A DNA stretch of 64,000 nucleotides from Candidatus Nomurabacteria bacterium (lineage in GTDB: Bacteria > Patescibacteriota > Patescibacteriia > HK-STAS-PATE-3): positions 288,001 through 352,000 of the forward strand of contig CP060223.1 in assembly GCA_023898465.1 (NCBI GenBank). The letters are read 5' to 3'. A program made the position numbers and the translations under genes. The first letter of the stretch is position 1. Every line of letters starts with the position of its first letter. The notes beneath the pieces are model-generated. The model was not told the origin of the DNA, made no database searches, and was given only the letters and a program-made list of their open reading frames with translations. This document shows positions 896-50,612 of this stretch, piece after piece.

Positions 896-1228
896 ATGGG
901 CCTCTCGCGCCTGCAGAAATATATCCTGAGGGAATTGGCGCAGACTCGACAAAAACAGGTGCCGAGCCAGCAGTTTCGTAAGTATTACACGAAGCAGTCA
1001 GCCAAGCCCAAGCAGAACGACATCGTTTCCATTGTCAGCACTTCCATTGAGCGTTTAATTGAGAGGGGGCTAGTCGTTGGCTACGGACGTCGCACCAAAG
1101 AGAAGTGGTTTATTGAAACGATTAGTCTGACTCCGAACGGTCGACATATCGCCAGAGCCTTACTCGGTCAACAACAGCGCTTGCCGCTCTTCCGCAGAAA
1201 AAAACATTCATCATCTTCCCATGCCTAA
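896..1228 (+). CDS. hypothetical small basic protein, possibly winged-helix
   Basis: 110-aa ORF tightly packed between aspS and the next gene. No motif recognised. Confidence 0.4.
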   Translation: MGLSRLQKYILRELAQTRQKQVPSQQFRKYYTKQSAKPKQNDIVSIVSTSIERLIERGLVVGYGRRTKEKWFIETISLTPNGRHIARALLGQQQRLPLFRRKKHSSSSHA

Positions 1229-1814
1229 AAAAACTCCAAAGATTCCTCCCAAAGTAGATCGTTACCTTAGCCAAGCTGAATATCGCTTCGAGGCTTTTGT
1301 ACACCGAACGGTTTTTACGGCCTATGATTTAGCGCAGACCCTGAAATTTCCTTTAGAGAAAATCGCGAAAGTATTGCTGGTGCGGGCTGATAAGGACTTC
1401 GCGCTTATTGTGGTGGCAGCTAAGCGACGCCTGGACATGGCCAAAATCAAGAAGGCGCTCAAAGTAAAAAGCGTGAAAATTGCCAGCGAGAAAGATATGG
1501 TGAAGTACTTTAAGGTAAAAGCCGGTGCGATGACTGCCTTTGCCAAACTGCACGGCATTACCATGGCGCTGGATCGCGGATTAGCCAAAGAGTCGCAGGT
1601 GCTTTTCCCCAGTGGTGATTTTCAAATCGCCTTGCGGCTTTCTCCTAAGCAAGTGGTGAAGAATGAAGAGGCTATCCTGGCTGATTTGAGCGTTGCCACT
1701 AATCTGAAACTGCAGACACCCAAAAAGCCTCAGAAGAAATCCCGCCCAAAGAAAAAGGCGCGTCCCAGCAAAAAGAAAGTTTCATCGCCTAAACGGAAGA
1801 AGGGGAAGCGCTAG
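1221..1814 (+). CDS. YbaK/ProX-like aminoacyl-tRNA deacylase with a Lys-rich C-terminal tail
   Basis: Sequence pattern resembles YbaK-family trans-editing domains. The last ~45 residues are polybasic (KKPQKKSRPKKKARPSKKK). Confidence 0.5.
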   Translation: MPKKTPKIPPKVDRYLSQAEYRFEAFVHRTVFTAYDLAQTLKFPLEKIAKVLLVRADKDFALIVVAAKRRLDMAKIKKALKVKSVKIASEKDMVKYFKVKAGAMTAFAKLHGITMALDRGLAKESQVLFPSGDFQIALRLSPKQVVKNEEAILADLSVATNLKLQTPKKPQKKSRPKKKARPSKKKVSSPKRKKGKR

Positions 1815-2533
1815 TGTATCAAATCAAGCTGCAGCAATTTGAAGGGCCGCTTGATCTGCTTTTGCGTTTGATTGAGCAGAATCAGCTGGATATTTCTCAA
1901 TTAGCCCTGGCGGAAGTCACCGAGCAGTTTATTGCAGAGATTGAAGCGGCTGAGTATATGAGTCCGGAGGAGCTGGCTGACTTCTTAGTCGTGGCTGCTA
2001 AACTGCTCTACATCAAGTCAAAAATACTCTTACCGCGTGATGAAGAGGATGAGGAAGAAGACCCGGGCATTTCCTTAGAGCAGCAGCTACGTCTTTACCG
2101 AGCCTACATTGATGCAGCCAAGCATATTGCCGAGCGCTGGCAAAAAGGCGATCGTATGTTTGTGCGCGAGCAGGCTAGTTTGCCTGAATCAATTTTCTTA
2201 CCACCACCGGGTGTGACACCAACCTTGCTCCAAGAGTTACTCTTGCACGTGATTGCCGGTATTGAGCCGATTGTGAATGTGAACGAAGGTGTGGTGCGCG
2301 CCACCGTAAACATCCGCGAAAAAATTACGCAAATTCGCGACATGCTGACTGCACAGCCCGACATTCGCTTCAATTCCTTGCTCGAAAAAATTACCACCAA
2401 GACTGAACTCGTTGTTACCTTCTTAGCCATGCTGGAGTTGGTCAAGCAGCGTTCAGTATTGCTGCACCAAGAAGATAATTTTTCCGACATTGTTATTTCC
2501 AGTTATAATGAAAGTCCTAACGAAAACGTATGA
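1814..2533 (+). CDS. scpA: segregation and condensation protein A
   Basis: N-terminal FEGPLDLLLRLI motif typical of ScpA. Followed directly by scpB. Confidence 0.8.
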   Translation: MYQIKLQQFEGPLDLLLRLIEQNQLDISQLALAEVTEQFIAEIEAAEYMSPEELADFLVVAAKLLYIKSKILLPRDEEDEEEDPGISLEQQLRLYRAYIDAAKHIAERWQKGDRMFVREQASLPESIFLPPPGVTPTLLQELLLHVIAGIEPIVNVNEGVVRATVNIREKITQIRDMLTAQPDIRFNSLLEKITTKTELVVTFLAMLELVKQRSVLLHQEDNFSDIVISSYNESPNENV

Positions 2534-3237
2534 CACTTGAAGCCCAAATCGAAGCATTACTTTTTGCCAGCGCCCGATCTATCAGCCTGAAAAAAATCAG
2601 CGAGCTTACGCAGCAAGACACTGAGAAGGTGCAAAGCGCGGTAGAGCAGCTTATTGAAAAATATCGCAGCGAAGAGCGAGGGATTCGACTTATTCGTCAG
2701 GCGCAATCCGTCCAAATGGCCACCAGCGCTGAGGCCAGCGACATTGTCACCGCTCTGGTAAAGGATGATCAGCGGGCTGAGCTGACCAAACCGGCCCTGG
2801 AAACACTCACCATCATTGCTTACCGTGGACCGATTACCAAGGCAGAGCTCGACACTATCCGTGGTGTGAACTGCAGTTTGATTCTCCGCAACCTGATGAT
2901 TAAGGGCTTGGTGGAAACAGCGGAACGCGGACAAAAAATAATGACGAGCTATCAAGTGACCAATGATTTTCTGAGCTTCCTTGGATTGGAAAATATTGAT
3001 CAACTGCCTGACTATGCTACCTTGCATAGTGAAGAGCACATGAATAAGCTCCTGGAAAACGACGCAAAAGCCGCTACAGAAGCAGAAAAGACTGCTGAGG
3101 AAGGCGAGGACAAGCCTCAGGAGCAGTCTGAAGAGCCGACTCAAGCTATAGAGGACGAGACAAGCTCCAGTGAACATGCTTCATCAGATGGAAACGATGA
3201 GGCGAGCGAAGGGGAACATGATCAAAACACCAACTGA
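2530..3237 (+). CDS. scpB: segregation and condensation protein B with an acidic C-terminal tail
   Basis: ALLFAS...ETLTIIAYRGPITKAELDTIRGV winged-helix motifs of ScpB. 4-bp overlap with scpA. Confidence 0.8.
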   Translation: MTLEAQIEALLFASARSISLKKISELTQQDTEKVQSAVEQLIEKYRSEERGIRLIRQAQSVQMATSAEASDIVTALVKDDQRAELTKPALETLTIIAYRGPITKAELDTIRGVNCSLILRNLMIKGLVETAERGQKIMTSYQVTNDFLSFLGLENIDQLPDYATLHSEEHMNKLLENDAKAATEAEKTAEEGEDKPQEQSEEPTQAIEDETSSSEHASSDGNDEASEGEHDQNTN

Positions 3238-4051
3238 ATTTACCAAGCGCAATGAGCCCTTCTTTGTGTTGGGCAATTGGAAAATGCATTTACGCGCCAG
3301 TGAGAGTGCGCGCATAGCCAAGGGTTTGGTGAGCACGGCCAAGCGCGTGCAGGGCAAGGTGACGACGGTGGTCTTCCCTAGCTTTCCCGCATTAGAGAAG
3401 GTCCACACCCAGGTAAAAAAGAGCGCGGTGCAGCTGGGAGCGCAAAATATGTCTTGGGAACTAGATGCCAGTGATACTGGTGAGGTTTCGGCTGAGCAGA
3501 TTAAGGAATTTGGTGCGTCCTGGGTTATTATTGGCCATTCTGAACGGCGCTTAAAACTGGCTGAGTCAGATGAAATGATAGAGCGTAAATTGGCTGCAGC
3601 GCTTTTGCGCGGGTTGCAGCCGGTCTTATGCGTGGGCGAGTCTGCACTTGAGCGTAACCAAGGCAGGGGATTATTGCATATCATGCATCAAGTTGAATCA
3701 GCCATGCGTTACGTGCAGCCGCAAAAAGATCAGGTGATTACCATTGCCTATGAGCCAATCTGGGCTATTTCACCTGGTAAACCCTGCGAGCCGGCTGATG
3801 CTGATGAAATGACGCAAAATATCCGACAAGTTCTCATTGACCGCTACGGGGTAAAACCAGCCTACCAACATTTCCGGATTCTCTATGGCGGGAGCGTCGA
3901 TGCCAACAATATTGCCTCGTATTTACGCTTAGATGAAGTTTCCGGCGTACTTGTCGGCAGCGCCTCGCTGAAAATTCCTTCATTTCGTGCTATGCTAGTG
4001 AAAGCTGCTCAGCTTCGGCAGTCGTTAGTAAAGAAGCGCACTCATTCCTAA
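3218..4051 (+). CDS. tpiA: triosephosphate isomerase
   Basis: GNWKMH, IIGHSERR, YEPIWAI, ILYGGSV motifs. Start placed at the internal ATG after the scpB stop. Confidence 0.85.
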   Translation: MIKTPTEFTKRNEPFFVLGNWKMHLRASESARIAKGLVSTAKRVQGKVTTVVFPSFPALEKVHTQVKKSAVQLGAQNMSWELDASDTGEVSAEQIKEFGASWVIIGHSERRLKLAESDEMIERKLAAALLRGLQPVLCVGESALERNQGRGLLHIMHQVESAMRYVQPQKDQVITIAYEPIWAISPGKPCEPADADEMTQNIRQVLIDRYGVKPAYQHFRILYGGSVDANNIASYLRLDEVSGVLVGSASLKIPSFRAMLVKAAQLRQSLVKKRTHS

Positions 4052-4064
4052 TACTCCCGTATCC

Positions 4065-5090
4065 ATGCCACGTAAGACTTCTGCAAAACGACGACTCGCC
4101 ATTAACGGATTTGGCCGAATTGGACGAGCTGCTTTTAAAATTGCTTTAGAAAGTAAAAAGTTTGATATTGTCGCGATTAACGACCTGACTGATACCGAAA
4201 GTCTGGCCATGCTCCTGAAGCATGATTCGGTGTATCGCAACTTCAATCACAAGGTTGGCTTTACCAAGGATTCCCTTATTGTGGATGGTAAAAAAATTCG
4301 CATTCTGGCTGAAAAAGATCCGGCTATGTTGCCTTGGAAGCGTCTGAAGATTGACGTGGTGCTCGAATGTACTGGCCGCTTTGTGAAGGATGGCGCTGCC
4401 CGGGCCCATATCAAAGCAGGTGCCAAAGCAGCTGTCGTTTCTGCGCCAACCAAGGGCGGAGACATCCCAACAGCCTTACTCGGTGTGCGTCAACCAAAGC
4501 CCGGCGAGCAGGTCGTTTCTAACGCTTCTTGCACTACGAATAACGTCGCACCGGTCACTCGAGTGATTATGGAGAATTTCGGCGTGTTGCGAGCAGCCAT
4601 GACCACGATTCACTCCTACACGGCTGAGCAAAACTTGGTTGACGGCCCACCGCCACCATTGCACCGCGATTTACGACGTATGCGAGCTGCTGCGGTTAAC
4701 CTCGTACCAACCACTTCTGGCGCGGCTATTGCCACGACCGAGGTGATTCCTGAGCTTAAGGGCTCCTTTGATGGTTTTGCTATTCGCGTGCCAACACCAG
4801 TGGTGTCCTTGTCTGACTTCACTTTCCTGGTAAAGAAAAAGACCACTATCGAAGAAGTAAACCGAGCCATGAAAAAGGCGGCTGAGGATCCTTCCTACAA
4901 AAATGTGCTGGCCGTAAATGAAGAACCACGCGTCTCTAGCGACTTTATTGGCGACCCACATTCTGCAATAGTTGACTTACCGCTCACGAATGTGATAGGT
5001 GGCGACCTTGTCAAAATCGTGGCTTGGTATGATAATGAATGGGGATATTCAACGCGGCTGGTAGAGATGGCACAGAAAGTGCATATCTAA
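4065..5090 (+). CDS. gap: glyceraldehyde-3-phosphate dehydrogenase
   Basis: INGFGRIGR Rossmann motif and SNASCTTN active-site Cys motif. Confidence 0.9.
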   Translation: MPRKTSAKRRLAINGFGRIGRAAFKIALESKKFDIVAINDLTDTESLAMLLKHDSVYRNFNHKVGFTKDSLIVDGKKIRILAEKDPAMLPWKRLKIDVVLECTGRFVKDGAARAHIKAGAKAAVVSAPTKGGDIPTALLGVRQPKPGEQVVSNASCTTNNVAPVTRVIMENFGVLRAAMTTIHSYTAEQNLVDGPPPPLHRDLRRMRAAAVNLVPTTSGAAIATTEVIPELKGSFDGFAIRVPTPVVSLSDFTFLVKKKTTIEEVNRAMKKAAEDPSYKNVLAVNEEPRVSSDFIGDPHSAIVDLPLTNVIGGDLVKIVAWYDNEWGYSTRLVEMAQKVHI

Positions 5091-5126
5091 AAGCACGCAA
5101 AAAACGAAAGGGGGTGTATTCCGTAC

Positions 5127-5312
5127 ATGTTACAGCTTAATTCATCAATGCTCGCCAGAGCCTTTCTCTGGTTCGGCCTCGTTTGTGGGTTGTTTGCCGT
5201 ATTAACCCAGCTGTCTGGTAAGACTTTCTTTGCCAGCTCGTTTTTCTATCTACAGGCCGGTATTTTAGGCGTCTTAGCCAGCATTGCCGTCCGAATGGAT
5301 AAGAATAAGTAG
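5127..5312 (+). CDS. small two-TM membrane protein (hypothetical)
   Basis: 61-aa ORF with two hydrophobic segments. Good RBS (AAGGGGGTG) 8 nt upstream. Confidence 0.35.
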   Translation: MLQLNSSMLARAFLWFGLVCGLFAVLTQLSGKTFFASSFFYLQAGILGVLASIAVRMDKNK

Positions 5313-5381
5313 TTTGAGCAGGGCCATAATGAAGGGCTTGGCGAATTGCGTAGTTTTTGTTACCCTACGCTGGTATTTCGG

Positions 5382-5456
5382 GGCCCTATCGTCTAGTGGC
5401 TAGGACGCATGGTTCTCATCCATGTAACAGGGGTTCGATTCCCCTTAGGGCTACCA
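5382..5456 (+). tRNA. tRNA-Glu (anticodon CTC), CCA encoded
   Basis: Cloverleaf folded by hand: acceptor GGCCCTA/TAGGGCT, D-arm GTCTAGTGGCTAGGAC (near-identical to E. coli tRNA-Glu), anticodon stem CATGG/CCATG with loop TTCTCAT, T-arm AGGGGTTCGATTCCCCT, discriminator A, CCA. Confidence 0.9.
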
Positions 5457-5612
5457 GCCCGCTTAGCGGGCTCTGCTGATAAGGATAGAAGAAAGTAAAA
5501 GTGGAATGTTTAGCATGTTGTTTTATAAGTTAAGGAATCGAACGGGCGAGGACGTCTGCCAGCGGCAGGCGACCGCAAGCCCCGGCCTGAAGTCCCGATA
5601 GGGACGGAATGG

Positions 5613-5634
5613 TCGATTCCCCTTAGGGCTACCA
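5613..5634 (+). repeat. 22-bp direct repeat identical to the tRNA-Glu 3' end (TCGATTCCCCTTAGGGCTACCA); att-like remnant
   Basis: Exact 22-nt match to 5435-5456, located 157 bp downstream of the complete tRNA. Confidence 0.8.
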
Positions 5635-5927
5635 CGGGCCATTGCGCCGTGCGGACTGCGTCCGACCAGGTCGGACTCCGCCCTTACGGCGCATGTCCCT
5701 TTCCCCATTGCAAACAGTCCCTCTCGGCAGCCTCGAGGTCCTTGGTTTGCAACGGGGGCCCCGATAAGAGTGCGGGCCCAAGTGCTCGGCATTACAAAGC
5801 GTCCCAGAAAAAATGCCAGACACAAGTCTTCGGCATTTAATGAGAAGAAGACGTAGGTCAACTTCAGAGTGAGTCACCACAAACATCGTCGCTGCGCTAG
5901 AGGCAGCATAATTCAGGAGGAAAAAAT

Positions 5928-6467
5928 ATGTCACGTAGCGTACTCATTTTCATCGTACTCCTCGTTATCCTCGCAGTAGGCGGTGGAATTGTTTGGTGGA
6001 TGGTCACCAACCCAAGCGAAAATAGCAACACAAATAATGCCGTTGTCGCGAATACCAACACTGAGGTGAATGCAAATGCTGCACCGAATATTGATGTACA
6101 GGCCGGTGCGGTGGATGTAGGACGAGAAGCCTTGCTGACCAGTGCGAACTTCCGCGCCAGCTCAGCTTCATTGCTCAGCGAATTTGACGGCCTAAGCGCC
6201 GCTGAAGATAAAAGCTACCTGGTTGTCTATTACATGTTGACGCCTTACGAAGGATCAAGCGAAAACGTGCCAAATCTGAACGATCAAAACGTTTCAGTCA
6301 GCAGCGGTGACACTTCCTATACACTGCAAGCAATTGGCACCACCCAGAGCGAAACTGATGGCGAAGAACTTGGCTATCTGCGTTTCGAAGTGCCTGTTGA
6401 CGCAAGCGGATTTGTCCTAACGATTTTAGACGGCGACATAGAGCAGACGATTGATCTGGGCTTTTAA
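5928..6467 (+). CDS. N-terminally membrane-anchored Asn/Thr-rich secreted protein (hypothetical)
   Basis: Single N-terminal TM helix then a low-complexity linker. AGGAGG RBS. Confidence 0.55.
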   Translation: MSRSVLIFIVLLVILAVGGGIVWWMVTNPSENSNTNNAVVANTNTEVNANAAPNIDVQAGAVDVGREALLTSANFRASSASLLSEFDGLSAAEDKSYLVVYYMLTPYEGSSENVPNLNDQNVSVSSGDTSYTLQAIGTTQSETDGEELGYLRFEVPVDASGFVLTILDGDIEQTIDLGF

Positions 6468-6520
6468 CCTATTGAGTGCCGGGTGAGTAACGGGGGATTG
6501 GCATTAGCGCAGGAGATGGC

Positions 6521-7633
6521 ATGAAGATTGGCATAGTTACGCAGAGCTTTTTCCCCATTCGCGGAGGTGTCGCAGAACACGTCTATCATACAGCGCATGC
6601 TTTAGAGCGGCGCGGACACGAGGTCGTTATTATTACGGCCAATTTTAGTCGTTTTGATGAGGATAGGGGATGTCGGGTCGAGCGCATCGGCCGCGATTTA
6701 ACCATTCCCTTTAATCAGGCTTTTGTAAACCTGACCATTAGCTGGAATATCCCGCAGGAGTTACGCCACCTAGAGCGCAAGTACGGCTTCGACGTGGTGC
6801 ATATTCACGGACCCTACGAACCATTTTTACCTGCCCTGGCGCTGAAGAATATCGAGTGCCCAAAGGTTGGCACTTTTCATGCCTTTAACGCGCATCCCTC
6901 GTTGGGCTATCGCGTGTTTGAAAATTACATCCGAACCTTTAAGGATCGTTTGTCAGCCCGCATCGCGGTTTCGCAAGCCGCTAAGGACTTTATCTCGCAT
7001 CATTTCCCGGATGATTATGAAATCATCCCAAACGGCGTGGATGTGCAGCGCTTTAGTCCGCAGGTCAAACCCTTCCCTTGGTATAACCCAGAGAAATTCA
7101 CCATCCTCTTTGTCGGTCGTATGGATCCGCGCAAAGGTTTGAAATATCTCTTACGCGCCTTCACCATGATCGCGTCCGAGTTCCCGCAGGCCGAGGTGGT
7201 GGTTGTCGGCAATGGTATATTGCGTCGCTATTACGAAACCTTTTTAGAGCCGAGCCTGAAAGATCGCGTGCGTTTCGAGGGCTTTGTCTCGGCTGCAGAT
7301 TTACCGCGCTACTATGCCTCCAGCGATGTGTATGTGTCGCCAGCCACCGGCAATGAGAGTTTCGGCATTGTCTTGCTCGAGGGTATGGCCAGCGGCAAGC
7401 CGGTGATTGCGTCGGATATTGACGGGTATCGGGATGTGATTCGCCATGGCCAGGATGGGATTTTGGTGCCAAAATCTGACCCAGCCGCCCTAGCCCAGGC
7501 TCTCCGCACCCTGGCCCGTGACCCGCAAGAAAGAGCAAAATACCAGCAGGCCGGCCGTCAGCGGGCTGAGGAATTCTCCTGGGAGTCTATTACTGACCGC
7601 TTGGAGGAGGTGTATAGGAGGGTGGTGTATTGA
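6521..7633 (+). CDS. GT4-family glycosyltransferase
   Basis: Glycos_transf_1-like C-terminus with EGMASGKPVIASDIDGYRDVI (E-x7-E) motif. Confidence 0.75.
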   Translation: MKIGIVTQSFFPIRGGVAEHVYHTAHALERRGHEVVIITANFSRFDEDRGCRVERIGRDLTIPFNQAFVNLTISWNIPQELRHLERKYGFDVVHIHGPYEPFLPALALKNIECPKVGTFHAFNAHPSLGYRVFENYIRTFKDRLSARIAVSQAAKDFISHHFPDDYEIIPNGVDVQRFSPQVKPFPWYNPEKFTILFVGRMDPRKGLKYLLRAFTMIASEFPQAEVVVVGNGILRRYYETFLEPSLKDRVRFEGFVSAADLPRYYASSDVYVSPATGNESFGIVLLEGMASGKPVIASDIDGYRDVIRHGQDGILVPKSDPAALAQALRTLARDPQERAKYQQAGRQRAEEFSWESITDRLEEVYRRVVY

Positions 7634-7666
7634 ACGTAGCAATGGAAGAATTATTAAAGTAAAAGA

Positions 7667-10600
7667 ATGGACTCTGCCCCATTAACACTACAAACGAAGA
7701 CACTGCAGAGGTCTTCCGATCTAAATAATTACAGACTCTATCGCGCAGCTCTTGAATGGGAGTTGATTGATCCTATTGTCATAGAAGACCGGGATGACAT
7801 GCATTCCGAAAGTAGTTGGCGTGATCGTCTTGAGCCGTATCATCATCAAGTAACTAACCTAATAACTTTTTGTCGTCGCCTACCTGTTACTTTACTGGCG
7901 GATGATGTCGGGTTAGGAAAAACAATTAGTGCTGGCCTAGTTTTAAGCGAGTTAATTTCGCGCGGGAGAATTTCAAAAATATTAATAGTTTGCCCAAAAA
8001 TACTTCGAGATCAGTGGAAAGAAGAATTGGAAATAAAGTTCCGAATTCCGTCCACAATTGTGACAGGAAGAGAATTAATTACGGCAAAGCCTCCTGAAGA
8101 ACCAGGAGCGGTAATTACCACATACAATACGGCCAGACTGTATTTAGATAGAATTGACCAGAATGGTTTTGAAATATTGATACTTGATGAGGCGCATAAA
8201 TTGCGGAATCTATATGGTGTTGACCCAACACCTCAAGTTGCAATTAAATTCCGTAAAGCTCTGGCTGACCGGATGTTTAAGTACGTATTAATGTTAACTG
8301 CAACGCCGATCCAGAACAGACTATGGGATCTCTACTCGTTGGTTGACTTATTAACCGTTGCACGCGGCCATGAAAATCCCTTTGGAACGCCAGGTATTTT
8401 TGCGAGAAAATTTATTGCAGATAGTCGCACACAAGCGCGTCAGCTTAATCCGGAGATGCGGGATGAGTTTCGCTCAATTATTTACGGTTATATGTCTCGG
8501 GTTCGTCGTGGAGATGCAAAACTCCACTTCCCAGAGCGGGTAGTACAGTTGCATAAAGTTGACCCAACACCAGAAGAATTGCAGTTGATCGGTGTGGTCG
8601 GAAAATCTATACAACAACTGAATGCGCTTACACAAATTGTAATCCTCCAAGCTTTGGTGAGTAGTCCAGAAGCGCTAATAAAGATGTTAGAAGGAATGGC
8701 TAAAAAAGGAACCGTACCGCGTGAGGTGTTGGCGAACGTTAAGGAATCAGCCAAAGAAATTCAAATCACTACAAAACTAAAAGGTTTGGGCGCGTTAGTT
8801 GAAAAACTTAGAAAGGAGCAACCCAATACTTGGCGGGTGGTAGTTTTTACAAGATGGCGAGAAACTCAAACAACTATCGAAACTTTTCTTGAAAAGCAAG
8901 GAGTAAAATGCGGCTTGATAAATGGCGATTCAAGTAAGCGAAATCAGGAAACAATCCAAAGATTTAAAAAAGACTTACCAGACATTAATGTAATTATTTC
9001 TACTGAAGCAGGTTCGGAGGGCGTTAACCTTCAGGCCGCTAATGTTTTGGTTAATTACGATCTCCCCTGGAATCCAATGATAGTGGAACAAAGAATAGGT
9101 CGTATTCAAAGACTTGCTTCTAATTATGCAAATGTTTCTATTTTTAATATTGTTTTGCAAAATACCTTTGAAGAATATATTGTAGGGCGCTTGATGGAAA
9201 AGTTGCAGATGGCTTCTCATGCAATTGGGGATATTGAAGCACTATTGGAAGCATCCGGCATTGATGAAGGTGAAGAAAATGGCTCAAGTGGTTTTGAAGA
9301 AAAAATTCGCCAGTTAGTAGTTGCATCTTTAGCTGGAAAAGATGTTGAGCAGGCAACTCGTAAAGCTGAACAGAGTATTTCAGAAGCTAAAACAGAATTA
9401 GACCATGAAGAAAAGAACATTAATGCTTTACTTGGGGGGATGAGTGATTCTCTAGATTCTGGTCCAAGATGTCCGAAGCTTCCTCAAACTACTAAGTCGA
9501 TGGATGTCCGTGATTTTACTACGGCTGCTCTTATGAGCTTAGGCGCGGAACTACATCCAAAAAAGGATGGTTTATTAGTTTCACAACTTGCTGGGAAAAA
9601 AGAATTAATCCGATTTGATAATAACACTCTGAGCAGTGAAGAGGAGAGTGTCTTATATGCACCGGGAACTTCAACTTTTGAACGCTTAGTCCATAAAGTT
9701 GCAAATGTAGGAAAACACATTGTTGAAGACCTTGATAAAAACCCCCAACAGCAAATTGAGAAAGTAAGTCGTCAATGGGTCGAAAGTTTTGGCGGAGACT
9801 TCGAAAATGTAACGGTAGAGGACGTTTCTCGATGTTTTGCAGGAGTAGCAATAATTCGTGCAAGATCAACAGTAGCTCACGATAGTTATGAGCGTCTCAT
9901 TGAGGTTTCGTGCGCTCCCACTGAGCATTTCAGTTTTGTGACAAGAACGGGATTGGAACCCATCGGAGACTATATTGAAAATCCGACATCTGTTGGTGCG
10001 CTTTCAGAAAAATTAATTGAAAAAGCCAGCCAAGACTCGAGTATTCTTGAGTTCTGTAGATTTTATTTAGAACGAAGATCTCAAGAAATTGCCTCCGCAG
10101 GAAATGACGAAAGAAAAAAGAAAAAGCTTGAGGATGAGTTTACGCCCCGTCTTGAATTTTCCCTAGTCGGTCTTGAGGGCAAGGTTCATCGGATAGTTAA
10201 AAATCAGGTCTCTTATAGAATTGAACGTGAGGGCCAATACAAAAGTACCCTCATGATAACCCCCTCTTCTGGGCAAGTTGATATGCCGGGGATGGGACAA
10301 TGCATGAAAACAGGTAAGACTGTACCGAGCGATTGCTTAGCAAAGTGCGAAATAAGCGGACTTATAGTATTGCGGCATTTTCTTGATCAATCAGAGATCA
10401 GTAATCGACTGGCGCTCCCTGAGCACATCGTTTTATGTACGTTAAGCAACAAGCGAGTGCTAGCGGACGAAGCTATAAAATCAGATGTTACGGGCAAACT
10501 AGTCGCAAAGAAGTTTTTAAAAACATCTTCTCTGAGTGGCAAATTCGCTGAACCACAGTTCATTAACACTTGTGAGTTTACAAAAACAGAAGTTCTGGAA

Positions 10601-11194
10601 AGCGAAATTGCGGTCAGCCAGATTTCAGGAAAAAGATATCGCATTGATGAGCAACTTAAATCCGCAGTTTCAGGAAAACTAGGCCATCGACAAGAATTTG
10701 TAGCAAGTAGTATTTCATCAGCCCCACTTCTTGAAGAAGAAGCCATTCGTTCGGTCACTGGAAAATTTTGTGCACCAATGGAAGCGAGGCCCTGCACTTG
10801 GAGTGGTCGAAAGTGTCACCCCGAAGACCTTAGGACTTGCGAGTTGACCGGAGTCCAAATTCATTCAGAGTACGTAACGCTCGAACCACCAATTCGTTTA
10901 GAAACCCTAAATAATCTTTTGAATGGCACGAGGAGCAAATCTGACAAATTGGAAGTATGGCCTTCACTTTCAAATAGCGTTACAGCTTTATTAAAAGCAA
11001 AACGTTGTAAAATTGAAACAGCAGAAGTTTCACCTAGTGACGATATTTTGGCCGCTTCTATAGAGCTTCGAACTTTTCTAGGCCTGCGCGTGAGTCACAT
11101 TGGCGTACTTTATTCAATAAAGGATGGATCCGTAGTCGGGCGTGTTGCTAGAGGCAAGCGTGGTGATAAGGGCTGGAATCAAACTAAGAACTAA
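7667..11194 (+). CDS. SNF2-family DEAD-like helicase (1175 aa) with a long uncharacterised C-terminal extension containing 15-aa tandem repeats
   Basis: Motif I ADDVGLGKT, motif II LILDEAHKLRN, motif III LTATPIQN, helicase-C STEAGSEGVNLQ and motif VI DLPWNPMIVEQRIGRIQR. About 600 aa after the helicase core have no recognised domain. Low-GC region. Confidence 0.85.
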   Translation: MDSAPLTLQTKTLQRSSDLNNYRLYRAALEWELIDPIVIEDRDDMHSESSWRDRLEPYHHQVTNLITFCRRLPVTLLADDVGLGKTISAGLVLSELISRGRISKILIVCPKILRDQWKEELEIKFRIPSTIVTGRELITAKPPEEPGAVITTYNTARLYLDRIDQNGFEILILDEAHKLRNLYGVDPTPQVAIKFRKALADRMFKYVLMLTATPIQNRLWDLYSLVDLLTVARGHENPFGTPGIFARKFIADSRTQARQLNPEMRDEFRSIIYGYMSRVRRGDAKLHFPERVVQLHKVDPTPEELQLIGVVGKSIQQLNALTQIVILQALVSSPEALIKMLEGMAKKGTVPREVLANVKESAKEIQITTKLKGLGALVEKLRKEQPNTWRVVVFTRWRETQTTIETFLEKQGVKCGLINGDSSKRNQETIQRFKKDLPDINVIISTEAGSEGVNLQAANVLVNYDLPWNPMIVEQRIGRIQRLASNYANVSIFNIVLQNTFEEYIVGRLMEKLQMASHAIGDIEALLEASGIDEGEENGSSGFEEKIRQLVVASLAGKDVEQATRKAEQSISEAKTELDHEEKNINALLGGMSDSLDSGPRCPKLPQTTKSMDVRDFTTAALMSLGAELHPKKDGLLVSQLAGKKELIRFDNNTLSSEEESVLYAPGTSTFERLVHKVANVGKHIVEDLDKNPQQQIEKVSRQWVESFGGDFENVTVEDVSRCFAGVAIIRARSTVAHDSYERLIEVSCAPTEHFSFVTRTGLEPIGDYIENPTSVGALSEKLIEKASQDSSILEFCRFYLERRSQEIASAGNDERKKKKLEDEFTPRLEFSLVGLEGKVHRIVKNQVSYRIEREGQYKSTLMITPSSGQVDMPGMGQCMKTGKTVPSDCLAKCEISGLIVLRHFLDQSEISNRLALPEHIVLCTLSNKRVLADEAIKSDVTGKLVAKKFLKTSSLSGKFAEPQFINTCEFTKTEVLESEIAVSQISGKRYRIDEQLKSAVSGKLGHRQEFVASSISSAPLLEEEAIRSVTGKFCAPMEARPCTWSGRKCHPEDLRTCELTGVQIHSEYVTLEPPIRLETLNNLLNGTRSKSDKLEVWPSLSNSVTALLKAKRCKIETAEVSPSDDILAASIELRTFLGLRVSHIGVLYSIKDGSVVGRVARGKRGDKGWNQTKN
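10301..10893 (+). repeat. about 12 tandem degenerate 15-codon repeats encoding [CS]-x-h-[ST]-G-[KR]-x8 within the helicase C-terminal region
   Basis: Protein-level periodicity: CEISG, CTLSNK, SDVTGK, SSLSGK, CEFTKT, SQISGK, SAVSGK, SSISSA, SVTGK, CTWSGR, CELTGV at 15-residue spacing. Confidence 0.7.
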
Positions 11195-11195
11195 T

Positions 11196-12686
11196 ATGAA
11201 CCCTCTACTTACAAAAACCGATTATCTTCTTTACCGGGAATGCCCAAAGAATGTTTGGTATAAAATCCAAAAACCTGAATTGTATGCTACATCGGAGCTA
11301 ACAGAGTTTGAAAAATCGATAATGGAAACAGGTAATGAGGTTGAAAAGATTGCAAGGCAACTTTTTCCAAACGGGGTGTTAGTAACTTATCGTGATGCGC
11401 GCGGTCAAGCTGAGACACAAAAGCTATTGGCGGAGAACAAGGATGTGATTTTTCAGCCAGTTTTTGTCAAAAATAACTTTTTGGCTGCTATTGATGTTCT
11501 ACAAAAAGAAAAGAATGGCAAGGGCTACAATGTTTACGAAATAAAATCGACTAGTGATGTAGATAAGAAAACACATTTTCACGACCTAGCATTTCAAGTA
11601 AACGTTCTCAGAATGACAGGCCTGGGAATTAATAAATCATTTGTCATTCATCTAAACTCTGAATATATTCGAAAGGGAGAAATTGAGCTGGATCAGTTAT
11701 TTAAAGTATCAGATGTGACGGATGAAGTAGAAAGTCTTTTACCGGATGTTGCGACTGAGGCGGAAGAAGCATTGAAGTATATTAGCCAAACTTCTGAACC
11801 AGAGGGGTACTGCTGCTGTATTTATAAAGGTCGATCAAGGCATTGTTCAACCTTTCAGCTAGCGAACCCCGAAGTACCCGAATATAGTGTCCACGATATT
11901 TCTAGGATAGGGGTAAGCAAGGCTAAATTAAAAGAGCTAATTGACGGAAGTATTTTTCACCTGGACAAGATTCCGCCACACATTAAATTAAGCGAAATTC
12001 AACAAGGTCAAGTTGAAACCTATAAATTGAATAAGGTATTAGTAGATAAGGAAAGAATTGCGGAAGAATTTAGTGGTCTCACATTCCCACTTTATTTTCT
12101 TGATTATGAAACATTTCCATCAGCAATACCAAGATATGATGGCTTTTCACCATATAAACAAATTCCGTTCCAGTATTCTGTTTACAAACTAGATTCAGTC
12201 GAGAGTGAGCCAACTCATTTTGATTTTTTGTACTCTGGTCCCGAAGACCCCAGCAAGCACTTTGCCGAGTCTTTAAGGGAACATATCGGGGATAAAGGCT
12301 CGATCATCGTTTGGCATAAAGACTTCGAGTGTGGCAGAAATAATGAAATAGGTAGTCGAATTCCTACTTCGAAGGCTTTTTTTGACTCTGTTAATCAGCG
12401 AGTATACGATCTCGAAGACATTTTCAAGAAACAATACCACGTTCATCGAGATTATAAGGGAAGCACATCTATTAAAAACGTATTGCCTGTTTTAGTGCCA
12501 GAATTAACGTATAAAGACCTTGAAATTCGTGATGGTGGCAGTGCAGCGGATAGTTGGGACAAAATAATTAGTGGTGTATATAACGAGACAGAGAAAGAAA
12601 AGGTAATAAAAGATTTAAAGATTTATTGTGGTCTTGATACATTTGCAATGTATGCTATTTGGAATTGCTTGAACAAGCTACTCTAA
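11196..12686 (+). CDS. Cas4/RecB-like PD-(D/E)xK nuclease with Cys cluster fused to a DEDD-like 3'-5' exonuclease domain (DUF2779-like architecture)
   Basis: N-terminal Cys (YRECPKN), D...EIK nuclease motifs, QxxxY-like motif, CCC-x8-C cluster, then FLDYETF (Exo I-like DxE) and YDLEDIF...H motifs. Start is 1 nt after the helicase stop, so translationally coupled. Confidence 0.6.
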   Translation: MNPLLTKTDYLLYRECPKNVWYKIQKPELYATSELTEFEKSIMETGNEVEKIARQLFPNGVLVTYRDARGQAETQKLLAENKDVIFQPVFVKNNFLAAIDVLQKEKNGKGYNVYEIKSTSDVDKKTHFHDLAFQVNVLRMTGLGINKSFVIHLNSEYIRKGEIELDQLFKVSDVTDEVESLLPDVATEAEEALKYISQTSEPEGYCCCIYKGRSRHCSTFQLANPEVPEYSVHDISRIGVSKAKLKELIDGSIFHLDKIPPHIKLSEIQQGQVETYKLNKVLVDKERIAEEFSGLTFPLYFLDYETFPSAIPRYDGFSPYKQIPFQYSVYKLDSVESEPTHFDFLYSGPEDPSKHFAESLREHIGDKGSIIVWHKDFECGRNNEIGSRIPTSKAFFDSVNQRVYDLEDIFKKQYHVHRDYKGSTSIKNVLPVLVPELTYKDLEIRDGGSAADSWDKIISGVYNETEKEKVIKDLKIYCGLDTFAMYAIWNCLNKLL

Positions 12687-12690
12687 ACCT

Positions 12691-13392
12691 ATGAGCTTTC
12701 TTAAGATTTTTAGTGATGATTCTAAAGACAAGCCAAAAGAAAATGATAGTCGGAAACCTGAATGTCCATACTGTCAGGGCGTTTTAGTTAAAATTCCTGC
12801 TAGAAAAACAAAATGTTTTCACTGTGGGAAATATATTTTTGTACGAACACAGACAAAGGACAGAAAGCTCGTTTTGGTTACTGAAGAAAATTCGGCCGCG
12901 ATAGACTCTGAATGGGAGTCAAAACAAGCCGCTACGATCACTTCATTGGTGGAGAAAGTAGATTTTACAAAGAAAAAAGAAGGTCTGCGCGAAGGGTTTG
13001 GGGACAAGGAACCCTCCGTTAGTGACATAAAGTGGGGCTTGTGGAACAAGAGGCTTCAGGAAGCAATGAAACGCAATGATTTTTCAGAACTTTCAGGAAT
13101 ATATTTTCAAATGGCTCTGCGCTTGCACGAAAGTGGAAAAGACAGCTTTAAACTTCAGGGCCAGGCTCAAAAAATGTTTTTGTTTAAAGAAAAGCAAAGC
13201 GGTGTTGTTTCTAGCGTAGAGGTTTTTTCTAGAGATGGCTGTGAAGAATGTAAGAAAATAAACGGAAAGAAATTTGTTATTTTTGAAGCACTAAAACTCA
13301 TGCCACTACCCGTTCAATCCTGCACAAACAAACTGAATAAGAATGCGCCCAATGGTTGGTGTCGATGCACTTTTCTTCCTTTTATAGATTAA
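12691..13392 (+). CDS. double zinc-ribbon protein (hypothetical)
   Basis: N-terminal CPYC-x18-CFHC and C-terminal CEEC...C-x3-C...CRC motifs. Begins 4 nt after the nuclease stop. Confidence 0.5.
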   Translation: MSFLKIFSDDSKDKPKENDSRKPECPYCQGVLVKIPARKTKCFHCGKYIFVRTQTKDRKLVLVTEENSAAIDSEWESKQAATITSLVEKVDFTKKKEGLREGFGDKEPSVSDIKWGLWNKRLQEAMKRNDFSELSGIYFQMALRLHESGKDSFKLQGQAQKMFLFKEKQSGVVSSVEVFSRDGCEECKKINGKKFVIFEALKLMPLPVQSCTNKLNKNAPNGWCRCTFLPFID

Positions 13393-13545
13393 GACTTTGC
13401 CACCAATACTTTTGTTTCGGTCGCTGAGCATCCACCCTTTTTATCCCCCTCTGCCGATCTTCTAAAAAGAAACGGGAATTTAATCACGTAAAAAATAAAG
13501 AGGACCCATTATAACCCCTTGCCTCCGTCATTCGCGAACGACGGG

Positions 13546-13574
13546 GTTGACAGGGCTTTTTTGTTATACTATTC
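13546..13574 (+). promoter_or_regulatory. sigma70-like promoter of the hrcA operon (TTGACA-17-TATTCT)
   Basis: Consensus -35 hexamer, 17-nt spacer, reasonable -10, immediately upstream of CIRCE. Confidence 0.55.
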
Positions 13575-13579
13575 TTGTT

Positions 13580-13606
13580 TTAGCACTCAAATATTGAGAG
13601 TGCTAA
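13580..13606 (+). promoter_or_regulatory. CIRCE operator (TTAGCACTC-N9-GAGTGCTAA), HrcA binding site
   Basis: Perfect 9-9-9 inverted repeat matching the CIRCE consensus, 10 nt upstream of hrcA. Confidence 0.9.
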
Positions 13607-13615
13607 TTCAAGCCC

Positions 13616-14341
13616 ATGAAGCTCTCAGAACGACAACAACACATATTACAGGCCGTGATTCAAGAACACCTGGTGCAGGGGAAGCCGGTTGGTTCGCAGC
13701 AACTGGTGACGGCCGGTGGATTCGACGTGTCGAGCGCGACTATGCGCAATGAAATGGCTGAATTAGAGGAAAAGGGCTTTTTAACGCATCCCCACACCTC
13801 AGCCGGTCGGATTCCGACGGAGCAGGGTTGGCGCTACTACCTCGACCATATCATTGAAAAAAAAGAGCTAAGTAAAAAGGAAGAAAGCTATCTGCAGCAG
13901 CAAGTGAAAAGCAGCGAGCCAGCTGGTCCGCAAAAAGTGAAAACCTTAGCCAAAGCACTGGCTGAGCTGTCAGAAGAAGCCATCATGATCGGTTTCGCGC
14001 CAAATGATGTGTACTACACCGGCTTGCGTAACCTTTTCTCTAAACCGGAATTCCAGGATTTTGCCGTGGTGACGCAGTTGTCTGAAGTGATTGACCATTT
14101 GGACGAGGCCTTGTCTCGCTTATTTCTACGAAAAGAAAAGTCCCAGCAGGATGTAACAGTATTAGTGGGACAGGAGCATCCTTTTGGCGCTGACTGCAGT
14201 GTCATTATGACGCAGATTCCGGTGGCCAAGGGGAATGCGACCGGTATACTCGGTATCCTGGGCCCGATGCGGCAGCAATATGCAGACAACATTGCTCGAT
14301 TAGATTATTCTCGTCATTTACTTACTGAATTATTTTCCTAA
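13616..14341 (+). CDS. hrcA: heat-inducible transcription repressor HrcA
   Basis: N-terminal winged helix (ILQAVIQEHL...PVGSQQL) and context: CIRCE upstream, grpE-dnaK downstream. Confidence 0.8.
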   Translation: MKLSERQQHILQAVIQEHLVQGKPVGSQQLVTAGGFDVSSATMRNEMAELEEKGFLTHPHTSAGRIPTEQGWRYYLDHIIEKKELSKKEESYLQQQVKSSEPAGPQKVKTLAKALAELSEEAIMIGFAPNDVYYTGLRNLFSKPEFQDFAVVTQLSEVIDHLDEALSRLFLRKEKSQQDVTVLVGQEHPFGADCSVIMTQIPVAKGNATGILGILGPMRQQYADNIARLDYSRHLLTELFS

Positions 14342-14344
14342 AGC

Positions 14345-14848
14345 ATGAGCACGAACGAAAACGAAGTCCAAGAAGACACTTCACCTGAAATGAGCACCCT
14401 GCAAAAGAAGGCGGAAGAGTACCTAGCCGGCTGGCAGCGCGCCAAGGCAGACTATCAAAACCTGAAGCGTCAGAATGAAAAAGAGCGCGAAGAGCTCATG
14501 AGTATGACCACTGGTGCGCTCATCCTCGACCTCCTGCCCGTGAAAACCAACTTTGACCTAGCCTGGCAACATCTGCCAGAGGATCTGAAAGACCACGCCT
14601 GGGTAAAGGGCATGGAACACGTGCAAAAGCAGTTTACCGAATTTTTACAAACCCTGGGTATTAGTTCCTATCAACCATCACATGAAGCCTTTGACCCCAG
14701 TAGCATGGAAGCGATCGAGCACACGGCTGACGCAGAAGTGCCCGAGGGTCAGGTGATCCGCACCACTGAGCCAGGCTATCGGATGCGCGACAAAGTCATC
14801 CGTCCGGCCAAAGTGGTGGTCAGCTCAGGTCCTAGTCAAGAATCGTAA
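14345..14848 (+). CDS. grpE: nucleotide exchange factor GrpE
   Basis: Size, coiled-coil N-terminus, AGWQRAKADYQN motif, position between hrcA and dnaK. Confidence 0.8.
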   Translation: MSTNENEVQEDTSPEMSTLQKKAEEYLAGWQRAKADYQNLKRQNEKEREELMSMTTGALILDLLPVKTNFDLAWQHLPEDLKDHAWVKGMEHVQKQFTEFLQTLGISSYQPSHEAFDPSSMEAIEHTADAEVPEGQVIRTTEPGYRMRDKVIRPAKVVVSSGPSQES

Positions 14849-14883
14849 TCTTCTCTCAACATTAACCCTTAAGGAGAAACACT

Positions 14884-15294
14884 ATGGCAATTATCAAATG
14901 GAGTCCTTTTGCAGACATGCTTGGCGAAGATTTCTTCGAAGACATGCCGCTGGCTCGTAATTATCGCTTTGTCCCGGCCCTCGACATTTATGAGGATAAG
15001 GACAACATCGTAGTAGAAACCCCACTCTCGGGCATTGATCCAAACAAAGTAAATATTGAGATCGAGGACAACATCCTCAAAATCTCTGGATCAACCGAAA
15101 AGAAATCCGAAGTGGATGAAAAAAACTACTACCGCAAAGAAGTCCGCAGTGGACAATTCTTCCGCTCGGTTGCCCTGCCAAAAGCAGTGGATGCAGATAA
15201 GGCTGATGCGCAATATCACGACGGTATCCTGAAAATCACCGTGCCAAAGCGCGAAGAAGCCAAGCCAAAGACTATTTCCGTTCAAGTAAAGTAA
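14884..15294 (+). CDS. Hsp20/alpha-crystallin small heat-shock protein
   Basis: Alpha-crystallin domain pattern (PALDIYEDKDNIVVETPLSGIDPNKVNIEIEDNILKISG). AGGAG RBS. Confidence 0.8.
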   Translation: MAIIKWSPFADMLGEDFFEDMPLARNYRFVPALDIYEDKDNIVVETPLSGIDPNKVNIEIEDNILKISGSTEKKSEVDEKNYYRKEVRSGQFFRSVALPKAVDADKADAQYHDGILKITVPKREEAKPKTISVQVK

Positions 15295-15358
15295 ATTCGC
15301 CGTTTGAGCAGCCCCGCCTACGCTAAAAGCTTTGGCGGGGAACTGAGACGAGGAACCT

Positions 15359-15715
15359 ATGTCACAACAACGTATACCAGCCCCGCAATTTAATAACCCG
15401 CTCCTGCGGATGAATGGTCGCTGTCCGGTCTGCAATAGTTTGTACGACGTTCAGCAGCTGCGCATCCTGGCTGAAAAAGAGCAGTCTATCCTGGCGCACC
15501 TCGAGTGCAGCAACTGCTCAACCGCGGTGCTGTCTTATCTGCAGTTGAGCGGCATGGGCTTATCCAATCACGCATTGATTACGGATTTAACTCCGGATGA
15601 GGTGCACGATCGGATGGGAAGCTCGCCGCCTATTTCCAGCGATGACATCATTCTCTTCCACAGCTATCTGGAGAATGAGGTCAAGGCGACTGATCTCTAC
15701 AGTGAAGATAGCTAA
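15359..15715 (+). CDS. hypothetical zinc-ribbon protein within the heat-shock operon
   Basis: CPVC...CSNC motif. No other similarity recognised. Confidence 0.4.
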   Translation: MSQQRIPAPQFNNPLLRMNGRCPVCNSLYDVQQLRILAEKEQSILAHLECSNCSTAVLSYLQLSGMGLSNHALITDLTPDEVHDRMGSSPPISSDDIILFHSYLENEVKATDLYSEDS

Positions 15716-15751
15716 CACTTATTTGTAAATCTCTTTAATCTCAACACACCT

Positions 15752-20537: not shown

Positions 20538-20569
20538 GACAAGGCGTCCCGGCCTTGTCGTAGTTTTTT
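20538..20569 (+). terminator. rho-independent terminator after dnaJ
   Basis: GACAAGGC-loop-GCCTTGTC 8-bp stem followed by TAGTTTTTTG. Confidence 0.6.
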
Positions 20570-20757
20570 GTTATTCCATCCCGCCCTCACCGTGTTGTTA
20601 TAAGTAACTGCTCAAAGTACCACCTTTGAGCAGTAGTAGCGCTCCTCCCTGAACGTGGTAGTTCATGGAGTTGGGTAGTTCTTGCGTGAAGGTATGCGCT
20701 CTGCTACCATACGGGCGTTTTCACGTTCCTTAGGAGTGAATCAAGAGGAGGGAGCAC

Positions 20758-21081
20758 ATGTCCTGCACTTTTACCTTTCCCGTACCCAAGGGCGTCACGG
20801 AGTTTCGGATCACCACACCCAATTCTGAGAAACTGGCCGGCACCGGACCTCGCTGGGTGGAGGTCAAGGAAGGCTGGACCAGATCCTACAAGCCGATCGA
20901 GGGTGGGCCTGGTACCATCAGAGTGACCAAGGTTGGTCAGGTGCGAGGCGGACACCGTATGGTGACCGTCGAGCTGGTCGACATGACCGCCACCTACGAG
21001 GCGGTGCTGCACTGCAAGCCGGCACCGAGCCAGGCAGTGCAGGAGGCCAGACAGGAGGTCCCGGTCGCCCAAGCATCCTAG
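20758..21081 (+). CDS. GC-rich small protein (107 aa), probably horizontally acquired
   Basis: About 62% GC with strong GC3 bias in a ~47% GC genome. GGAGGG RBS and its own downstream terminator. Confidence 0.5.
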   Translation: MSCTFTFPVPKGVTEFRITTPNSEKLAGTGPRWVEVKEGWTRSYKPIEGGPGTIRVTKVGQVRGGHRMVTVELVDMTATYEAVLHCKPAPSQAVQEARQEVPVAQAS

Positions 21082-21103
21082 CTTCTCGACGCGCATAGTC
21101 CAC

Positions 21104-50607: not shown

Positions 50608-50612
50608 CGCAT

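Follow-up and report, generated by a model that had tools for sequence, protein, structure and literature searches.

[quoted passage not shown]

The 22-nt sequence that forms the 3' end of a tRNA-Glu gene of Candidatus Nomurabacteria is present a second time a short distance downstream. This second copy is best explained, with a probability that we put at about 0.6, as the 3' end of a non-coding unit of the tRNA-linked repeat (TLR) type that was gained in this lineage behind the tRNA gene, and not as the remnant of an integrase-bearing island. The design of the unit is equivalent to that of the TLRs of Escherichia coli, it is conserved in other genomes, and among relatives the site is found both occupied and empty. 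Judged by the architecture read from its sequence, the unit is a member of the TLR class and extends this class to another phylum and another tRNA.

The tRNA-Glu gene (anticodon CTC) was called by both ARAGORN and Rfam, and its last 22 nt, from T-loop position 55 to the CCA, constitute the first copy of the repeat. Within the window, by which we mean the whole 64-kb stretch of DNA that was analysed, there are exactly two occurrences of the 22-mer TCGATTCCCCTTAGGGCTACCA, one at 5435-5456 and one at 5613-5634; they share the + strand, with a start-to-start spacing of 178 bp and 156 bp of intervening sequence. The chance expectation was 0.01 matches, and two matches were obtained in none of 100 shuffles. 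No additional match with up to 3 mismatches was detected in the window, nor any third copy with up to 6 mismatches in 22 over the 64 kb, the extra match at 17225 (5 mismatches) being at chance level. A tRNA 5' half was found upstream of the second copy neither in the sequence nor by ARAGORN. The sequence-only reading, which had described a complete tRNA-Glu followed by an exact copy of its 3' end lacking a 5' half, was thus correct in its basic observation. A 9-nt complement of the tRNA 5' end is also present at 5756-5764, at chance level.

The second copy lies in an intergenic, non-coding segment (5457-5927) with a G+C content of 61-63% in 5500-5800 versus about 48% in the surroundings. The earlier description of the sequence between and after the repeats as GC-rich and foreign-looking holds for its composition, but the BLAST comparison of 5457-5927 that had been proposed gave no match to 50,697 phage and 72,556 plasmid records, and against the window itself the 22-mer was the sole match. 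Moreover, a search for the unit pattern in 2.9 million viral contigs returned no true unit and a single chance match, which corresponds to a tRNA-Leu. A phage, plasmid or viral origin was consequently rejected. A protein-coding insert was rejected as well: of the three ORFs in the G+C-rich block (63-112 aa), one lies on the + strand and the other two on the - strand, with Pfam matches for 0 of the 3, and the ORFs in and adjoining the insert gave no Pfam match either.

The tRNA gene is preceded by genes for tRNA_edit, ScpA, ScpB, TIM and GAPDH and by a 61-aa membrane ORF, and the G+C-rich gap is followed by a 179-aa ORF, a GT4 glycosyltransferase, a low-G+C block with an SNF2 helicase, DUF2779 and a 233-aa ORF, and then HrcA, GrpE, Hsp20 and DnaK. 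The next GAPDH relatives of this organism are at most 74% identical and belong to the Patescibacteria. Among the flanking genes at 1221-7633 and 7667-17686 neither an integrase nor a recombinase was found, in agreement with the earlier statement that the site has no integrase; housekeeping genes, the SNF2 helicase and DUF2779 are present instead.

Table 1. Features of the tRNA-Glu locus and the downstream unit, in window coordinates; stems and hairpins are predicted.
Feature	Position	Strand	Basis
tRNA-Glu(CTC), CCA encoded	5382..5456	+	ARAGORN; Rfam tRNA 62.5 bits; 22-mer search
Trailer hairpin GCCCGC-TTA-GCGGGC, directly 3' of CCA	5457..5471	+	sequence, fold
A+T-rich spacer, trailer hairpin to unit	5472..5533	+	sequence, composition
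Anti-T-loop segment GGAATCGAAC, 5' strand of closing stem P1	5534..5543	+	inverted repeat I3, folds
Hairpin P2, GGGC...GCCC around GTCTGCC-AGC-GGCAGGC	5544..5582	+	MFE and centroid folds; family consensus
Hairpin P3, GGCC...GGTC around GTCCC-GATA-GGGAC	5584..5614	+	MFE and centroid folds; alignment A3
Repeat copy 2, exact tRNA-Glu 3'-end copy, 22 nt	5613..5634	+	22-mer search, repeat search, fold
G+C-rich block, three strong hairpins at about 5643-5693, 5703-5757 and 5813-5836	5635..5840	+	fold z-score -3.6; inverted repeats I1, I2

The features of the locus are collected in Table 1, and the anatomy given there for the unit (P1, P2, P3 and a tail) is a prediction from free-energy folding and covariation across loci. 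The anti-T-loop segment GGAATCGAAC is the perfect reverse complement of GTTCGATTCC, the T-loop/T-stem of tRNA-Glu (tRNA positions 53-62), a complementarity that the sequence-only reading had overlooked. In the predicted fold of 5529-5634 (z-score -3.05; z-scores at the locus range from -3 to -4), nucleotides 5534-5539/41 pair with 5613/15-5620 to form P1; this stem closes P2 and P3, which gives a three-way junction. The second copy is thereby divided into the 3' strand of P1 (5613-5620) and a 14-nt single-stranded tail (5621-5634, CCTTAGGGCTACCA), so that the acceptor 3' strand and the ACCA remain unpaired. Because of this predicted three-way junction, the copy appears as the 3'-terminal part of a module about 100 nt long (5534-5634) and not as a bare fragment. 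The unit starts 78 nt 3' of tRNA-Glu on the same strand and comes to 178 bp if the trailer is counted. The trailer hairpin has no T-run after it and was absent from the terminator scan, and hence is not a canonical intrinsic terminator. The relation of the block at 5635-5840 to the unit is uncertain: it is missing in the two relatives L137 and L145, and no counterpart of it was found after the units of other loci.

When 5000-6200 was searched with Rfam at E ≤ 10, and the whole window with gathering thresholds, only tRNAs and an RNase P RNA were returned, and searches on 15 related loci returned nothing for the units. The acceptor piece of a two-piece (permuted) tmRNA was considered and rejected. 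Such a piece should have a tRNA-Ala-like acceptor end with a G3:U70-compatible 3' strand, and the identity found here is the wrong one, as the 3' strand UAGGGCU, with G at position 70, is that of tRNA-Glu; in addition, ARAGORN detected no tmRNA and Rfam gave no tmRNA or tmRNA_permuted match. A retroelement primer-binding site, the homing spacer of a CRISPR-associated transposon, a T-box and a TnpB omega-RNA guide were discarded because the orientation or geometry was wrong or the partner genes were missing.

TLRs have been known since 1978, but the literature searched has no description of them outside E. coli and its relatives, and the term is seldom used there. In the E. coli record, each 178-bp repeat unit of tyrT includes GGGGAAGGAT, G+C-rich hairpins over about 100 nt, and AATCCTTCCCCCACCACCA, which is the last 19 nt of tRNA-Tyr. 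The consensus of the Rfam RtT family (RF00391) likewise pairs an upstream segment with the tRNA-derived copy in a closing stem, followed by a single-stranded ...CCACCA tail. [quoted passage not shown] Those linked to rrn operons lie between two terminators, are transcribed by read-through and are processed, and it has been suggested that the copied end directs TLR cleavage (PMC8144298). TLRs have no known function, and an earlier starvation phenotype of rtT was retracted (PMC8144298).

The unit in the window resembles the TLRs of tyrT/tyrV (RtT, rttR, RF00391) in lying directly behind a tRNA gene, 3' of it and in the same orientation, and in ending with an exact copy of the tRNA 3' end that includes the CCA (19 nt in E. 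coli; 22 nt in the window, where all 22 bases, ACCA included, are identical to the upstream stable RNA). In both, an upstream complement of the copied part closes a stem around G+C-rich hairpins and leaves the acceptor strand and CCA as a tail; in the window this arrangement is present in the predicted MFE and centroid folds and is kept in the family alignment. The sizes also agree, with units of about 100-180 bp and a period of about 140-180 bp, the value of 178 bp in both cases being probably a coincidence, and with one unit in the window and 1-5 at related loci. In contrast, no sequence or covariance-model similarity was detectable between them: RtT gave no match at E ≤ 10 in 5000-6200, while in the positive control the same model recognised four E. 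coli units with 133-137 bits. The unit is therefore assigned to the TLR class by architecture and not to the RtT sequence family. The two also differ in context (tRNA-Glu, Patescibacteria and one unit versus tRNA-Tyr, Proteobacteria and 3.14 units) and in the composition of P1, which in the window uses the T-loop complement (tRNA positions 53-62) and in E. coli tyrT the end of the T-loop, the 3' strand of the T-stem and the start of the acceptor strand.

A further counterpart is provided by rrA/rrB/rrF of the E. coli rrnA, rrnB and rrnD operons, where a copy of the 3' end of a stable RNA is likewise found about 150 bp downstream (PMC8144298). These elements constitute a precedent for read-through transcription and processing at the copied end (PMC8144298), and their terminator-unit-copy-terminator layout is shared by many of the metagenome units described below. 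They are linked to 5S rRNA and bind Hfq and CsrA via GGA motifs, whereas the unit in the window is linked to a tRNA and, unlike them, has no canonical terminator between the stable RNA gene and the unit. Unlike the window unit, the rrnB TLR also shows no evident P1-like complement to its copy.

Outside the window, the orthologous locus of the distant Patescibacteria genome L005 (Kerfeldbacteria, GAPDH 63% identical) has the order GAPDH, small ORF, tRNA-Glu(CTC), and its 22-mer TCGAATCCCCATGGCGGTACCA, which follows the sequence of its own tRNA, is found again about 140 nt past the tRNA, with the complement of that T-loop ahead of this copy as well. In the GAPDH-anchored scan of reference genomes this was the one locus, of 25 checked, with the tRNA nearby. 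A metagenome scan was carried out with a pattern consisting of an anti-T-loop segment, 55-85 nt and then the T-loop through ACCA. It returned 51 loci, of which about 25 are true units located behind tRNA-Glu(ctc, ttc), Lys, Ala(cgc, ggc), Arg, Gly and tmRNA genes, always on the strand of the tRNA. Set aside as false positives were two palindromic contigs, an 11-locus family that gave weak tmRNA-like matches, and about 8 ordinary tRNAs that have GGAWTCGAA upstream. As the search pattern demanded both, P1 and the ACCA are present in the metagenome set partly by construction, and it is L005 and E. coli that confirm the design independently. Tandem units are frequent among these loci, with a maximum of 5 copies in L095, where the period is about 150 bp, and the insert between copies measures about 90-160 bp across phyla and tRNA types. 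Many loci have a strong intrinsic terminator between the tRNA and the unit, so that expression there would need read-through, as in E. coli rrnB, and in several of them the post-tRNA terminator is repeated after the copy.

By blastn, the body of the unit has no primary-sequence homology with the other loci, and the likeness lies in structure and architecture alone. With few exceptions, the units share a common fold composed of P1, two hairpins and a tail. In the alignment A2 (12 sequences), 92% of the cells are paired, versus 29-49% with slid partners, and the covariation score of 0.456, compared with 0.16 in shuffles, was reached by none of 500 shuffles. In the alignment A3 (window, L085, L100, L118 and L134), 13 of the 27 pairs show a compensatory change, several of them in P3, and the consensus with the same four loci reveals a GC-to-CG compensatory change in the basal stem of P2. 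The single P1 position not constrained by the search pattern shows complementarity in 23 of 24 independent loci (p = 3e-6). In 19 of 26 units folding is better for the sense than for the antisense strand (p = 0.004), with a margin of 6-11 kcal/mol in the family of the window.

The comparison with related genomes that the sequence-only reading had called for was informative. In L137 and L145, the two closest fully syntenic relatives (GAPDH identity 73%), only 63-95 nt separate tRNA-Glu from the downstream orthologue of the 179-aa ORF, and at their sites neither a second copy of the 22-mer nor the G+C-rich block is present, which fits the proposal of a very small insert; the tRNA-Glu of L145 differs by 2 nt from that of the window. 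The site is also empty in L139 and L143. The block of about 400 nt is therefore a lineage-specific gain. The contigs L001-L003 belong to the same strain and are 100% identical, and so are uninformative on polymorphism. Other loci of the group carry partial versions: L138 has a 66-nt mini version at the tRNA-Glu locus, and in L142 a GIY-YIG ORF lies between tRNA-Glu and a 55-nt partial copy, which has a hairpin inserted in its T-loop. Genes also occupy the space that separates a copy from the body of the following unit, namely a Peptidase_S51 gene and a 130-aa ORF on the opposite strand in L085, and a 23S_rRNA_IVP gene repeated at a 668-bp period between the units of L099/L132. In L108/L126, where neighbouring tRNAs encode the CCA, the unit-bearing tRNA-Ala ends CAC|AG and the last copy ends CACCA, with a shared stretch of 21-22 bp, which suggests that the last copy is the displaced original end of the tRNA.

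The sequence-only reading had interpreted the repeats as attL and attR of a tyrosine-integrase element, the trace of a prophage or island inserted in the T-loop of tRNA-Glu whose interior was later almost entirely lost. The geometry agrees with this part of the proposal, since a direct repeat from the T-loop to the CCA is reportedly the classic sublocation of tRNA-targeting integrases (Williams 2002, as cited in PMC9897764); as in the att duplications of islands, prophages and ICEs at tRNA and tmRNA genes, a complete tRNA is accompanied by a displaced partial 3' copy in direct orientation with its boundary in the T-loop, and occupied and empty sites coexist among relatives. The high G+C content of the insert relative to the genome points in the same direction, as does a truncated resolvase-like ORF, below the Pfam threshold, just downstream in L005. 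However, integrase elements measure kilobases and carry their integrase, and the insert found here consists of 156 non-coding, structured bp; no integrase or phage gene lies near the site in the window, and none was recognised at the other arrays examined. Nor would random decay be expected to leave inserts alike in size and fold across phyla and tRNA types. The insert is not decayed junk but a folded module with stems that covary from locus to locus, which speaks against its reading as a possible remnant of an excised or deleted island. A neutral displaced copy should moreover diverge, but the copy in the window is 22/22 identical and in each lineage the copy follows its own tRNA. With the lack of phage or plasmid similarity added to this, an integrase scar is very unlikely. 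It had also been stated that a duplicated 22-mer conserved among relatives as part of a structured RNA, and not polymorphic for insertion, would speak against an attachment site; a structured element of this design, with the sequence of its own tRNA, does recur in L005 and many genomes, yet insertion polymorphism is present. The same recurrence, with compensatory changes in unrelated lineages, makes it highly improbable that slippage or unequal exchange produced a neutral local duplication without function or mobility, in which the fold would be incidental to a G+C-rich sequence. The window does contain a single unit, and several further partial duplications are seen at tRNA-Glu loci of this group (L138, L142), but the fold z-scores of -3 to -4 and the 22/22 identity kept while the flanks differ are against it.

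A different possibility is that the unit is a non-autonomous DNA element or cassette site, made of a structured body and a core from the T-loop to the CCA, loosely comparable to an integron attC, which would insert at the 3' ends of tRNAs, duplicate there and capture genes through a recombinase encoded elsewhere or through host recombination, the RNA fold being a by-product or a fold of single-stranded DNA. Such an element would account for the sites empty in L137, L145, L139 and L143 and occupied in the window and L005, for arrays of 2-5 tandem units, for genes placed exactly between a copy and the body of the unit after it (L085, L099/L132), for the GIY-YIG ORF ahead of the partial copy of L142, and for the CCA found only in the last copy of L108/L126, as expected of a displaced original end; presence and absence, cargo and this CCA pattern suit DNA-level insertion at least as well as an RNA function. 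The analogy with integron cassette arrays (attI plus structured attC), which is meant as an analogy only, extends to a fixed site, here the tRNA 3' end, followed by an array of units that end in a structured imperfect palindrome and a short core, with slots that are empty or filled by genes. Unlike integrons, however, the arrays have no IntI-type integrase, and the units are oriented with the tRNA operon and probably transcribed from it. The core sequences did not fit the attC R-box consensus in a by-eye comparison. No recombinase was recognised beside the arrays, either by Pfam in the flanks of the site in the window or by eye in the ORFs adjoining 13 other arrays, a minority of which were Pfam-scanned. 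The absence of any true unit from the viral contigs, the sense-strand folding bias, which favours an RNA made in the direction of the tRNA, and the transcription and processing of the E. coli TLRs (PMC8144298) are further points against this explanation, and unequal crossing-over between copies would suffice for tandem arrays without a site-specific system. On balance we consider a DNA element by itself fairly unlikely, although the RNA reading and the reading as a mobile or cassette-like element may both be true together.

If the unit is of the TLR type, it would be co-transcribed with tRNA-Glu, by analogy with the E. coli elements. The absence of a U-tract terminator after the tRNA and the sense-strand folding bias hint at transcription, and read-through past the trailer hairpin is plausible because this hairpin has no U-tract. 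As the terminus of the unit is identical to that of the tRNA, the tRNA 3'-maturation machinery would define its 3' end, and the same maturation and protection machinery may stabilise it. The product would then be a small structured RNA whose amount may track transcription of the tRNA operon.

A single locus of this kind is ordinary once recognised, and it is the recurrence across phyla, together with the hints of mobility and cargo, that carries the interest. The presence of the same architecture in a streamlined genome of about 1 Mb in the Patescibacteria, and behind many tRNAs and tmRNA, speaks for a design that is selected or self-propagating, and a local accident is unlikely as its origin. 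With their covarying stems, occupied and empty sites and cargo arrays, the loci constitute a comparative set that makes the role and origin of TLRs testable. For annotation, partial copies of tRNA 3' ends less than about 200 bp from the parent tRNA should not automatically be taken as island boundaries or att scars. A broader proposal, which at present seems quite unlikely, is that TLR-type units are not peculiar to E. coli but a bacteria-wide class of small structured modules (Patescibacteria, Firmicutes-like bacteria and Proteobacteria) that copies the 3' end of the preceding tRNA or tmRNA, spreads or duplicates by insertion in the T-loop and could capture cassettes at tRNA genes; if true, they would be an integron-like or self-propagating system without a recognisable recombinase of its own. 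As to their distribution, the metagenome locus L113 also contains the start of an OLE RNA, with a match below the Rfam gathering score, and since OLE RNA is known from Firmicutes, the units probably extend beyond the Patescibacteria.

The units, structured modules of about 100 nt that stand behind a tRNA and close with a copy of its 3' end, can be found on either side of coding sequence. In L085, a locus recovered by the metagenome pattern scan, a tRNA-Glu gene is followed by one unit, by a Peptidase_S51 gene and a 130-aa ORF that both run on the opposite strand, and by a second unit almost identical to the first, with a 1-nt insertion in the tRNA-end copy that closes unit 1. The arrangement resembles a gene cassette enclosed by two TLR-type units, that is, units of the tRNA-linked repeat class. 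At two tRNA-Lys loci from the same scan, L099 and L132, the tRNA is followed by a 668-bp repeat composed of a unit and the gene for a 114-aa "23S rRNA intervening sequence protein" (PF05635). The repeat is present twice in L132 and once in L099, where a gene-less unit lies ahead of it. The final copy of the tRNA-Lys end is degenerate beyond 15 nt.

In two Kerfeldbacteria genomes, tRNA-Glu(CTC) is adjoined by a small GIY-YIG ORF of about 91 aa. The ORF of L142 separates the complete tRNA-Glu from a 55-nt partial copy that extends from the anticodon arm to CCA and has its T-loop interrupted by a 31-nt hairpin. In L005, an ORF assigned to GIY-YIG by eye overlaps the 5' end of tRNA-Glu. The GIY-YIG ORF may represent a selfish cassette with tRNA-Glu(CTC) as its target.

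The copied ends do not always match the adjacent tRNA. At L108/L126, L096/L128, L101 and L117, the tRNA gene beside the unit ends in CAG, CTT, CGA or CAT rather than in an encoded CCA, and CCA is present on the last copy of the tRNA 3' end; CCA is encoded in all three other tRNAs of the L108/L126 contig. In L134, the two units behind tRNA-Glu(TTC) carry ends that fit a tRNA-Glu(CTC)-type 3' end, as found in L118 and L137, rather than that of their neighbour; an array can therefore persist after its parent tRNA is lost or move away from it. L138, a relative at the locus of the window unit, has a pseudo-copy of the tRNA-Glu 5' half, broken by insertions, upstream of tRNA-Glu and, downstream, two hairpins that form a mini element of 66 nt, whose 3'-terminal GGTGGGGCTACCA is an acceptor end unlike that of the adjacent tRNA-Glu.

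Other structures were also retrieved by the pattern scan. A family of 11 loci (L086, L089, L094, L098, L105, L106, L110, L114, L122, L125 and L135) combines a complete T-arm and an alanine-type acceptor end (…GGTTCGAATCCCCTCGGGTCCACCA) with non-tRNA sequence ahead; Rfam returned only weak tmRNA matches (20–22 bits) for these loci, which may represent an unusual or permuted tmRNA. Palindromes of about 110–120 nt, perfect in L119 and near-perfect in L102, have tRNA 3' parts in opposite orientation as their arms, and could be either hairpin elements or artefacts of assembly.

Coordinates of the features discussed, in the window and in the compared loci
Feature	Sequence	Position	Strand	Remarks
Same-strain assembly L001	window	5024-9467		
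Same-strain assembly L002	window	5777-6856		
Same-strain assembly L003	window	5838-6783		
Low-G+C block	window	7667-13392		G+C 0.38-0.42 vs ~0.48; between GT4 gene and hrcA
Second G+C-rich patch	window	20560-21110		~60% G+C
107-aa ORF in this patch	window	20758-21081	+	good Shine-Dalgarno sequence
Mechanically listed ORFs	window	50011-50577, 50529-50924	-	partial overlap with RNase P RNA
Bacterial RNase P RNA, class A	window	50618-51030	+	164.8 bits
tRNA-Glu, two units, two genes	L085	~7559-9262	-	
tRNA-Glu(CTC) and GIY-YIG ORF	L142	2807-3312		
tRNA-Glu(CTC) and GIY-YIG ORF	L005	5228-5556		
tRNA-Glu(TTC), two units	L134	2365-2671		
tRNA-Glu, 5'-half pseudo-copy, mini element	L138	4770-5060		

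Elsewhere in the window, the low-G+C block codes for an SNF2-family helicase of 1175 aa and a 514-aa DUF2779 protein, and contains a further ORF of 233 aa that gave no Pfam match. The block, of about 5.7 kb, looks like a separate insertion because in the syntenic relative L145 HrcA directly follows GT4. The second G+C-rich patch looks foreign by composition, and its 107-aa ORF has no Pfam match. The minus-strand ORFs listed at the RNase P RNA may be spurious. Finally, L001, L002 and L003, which were assembled independently from the same strain, break within or beside the G+C-rich hairpin block behind tRNA-Glu(CTC); possible causes are poorly covered hairpins or a population that is heterogeneous at the locus.
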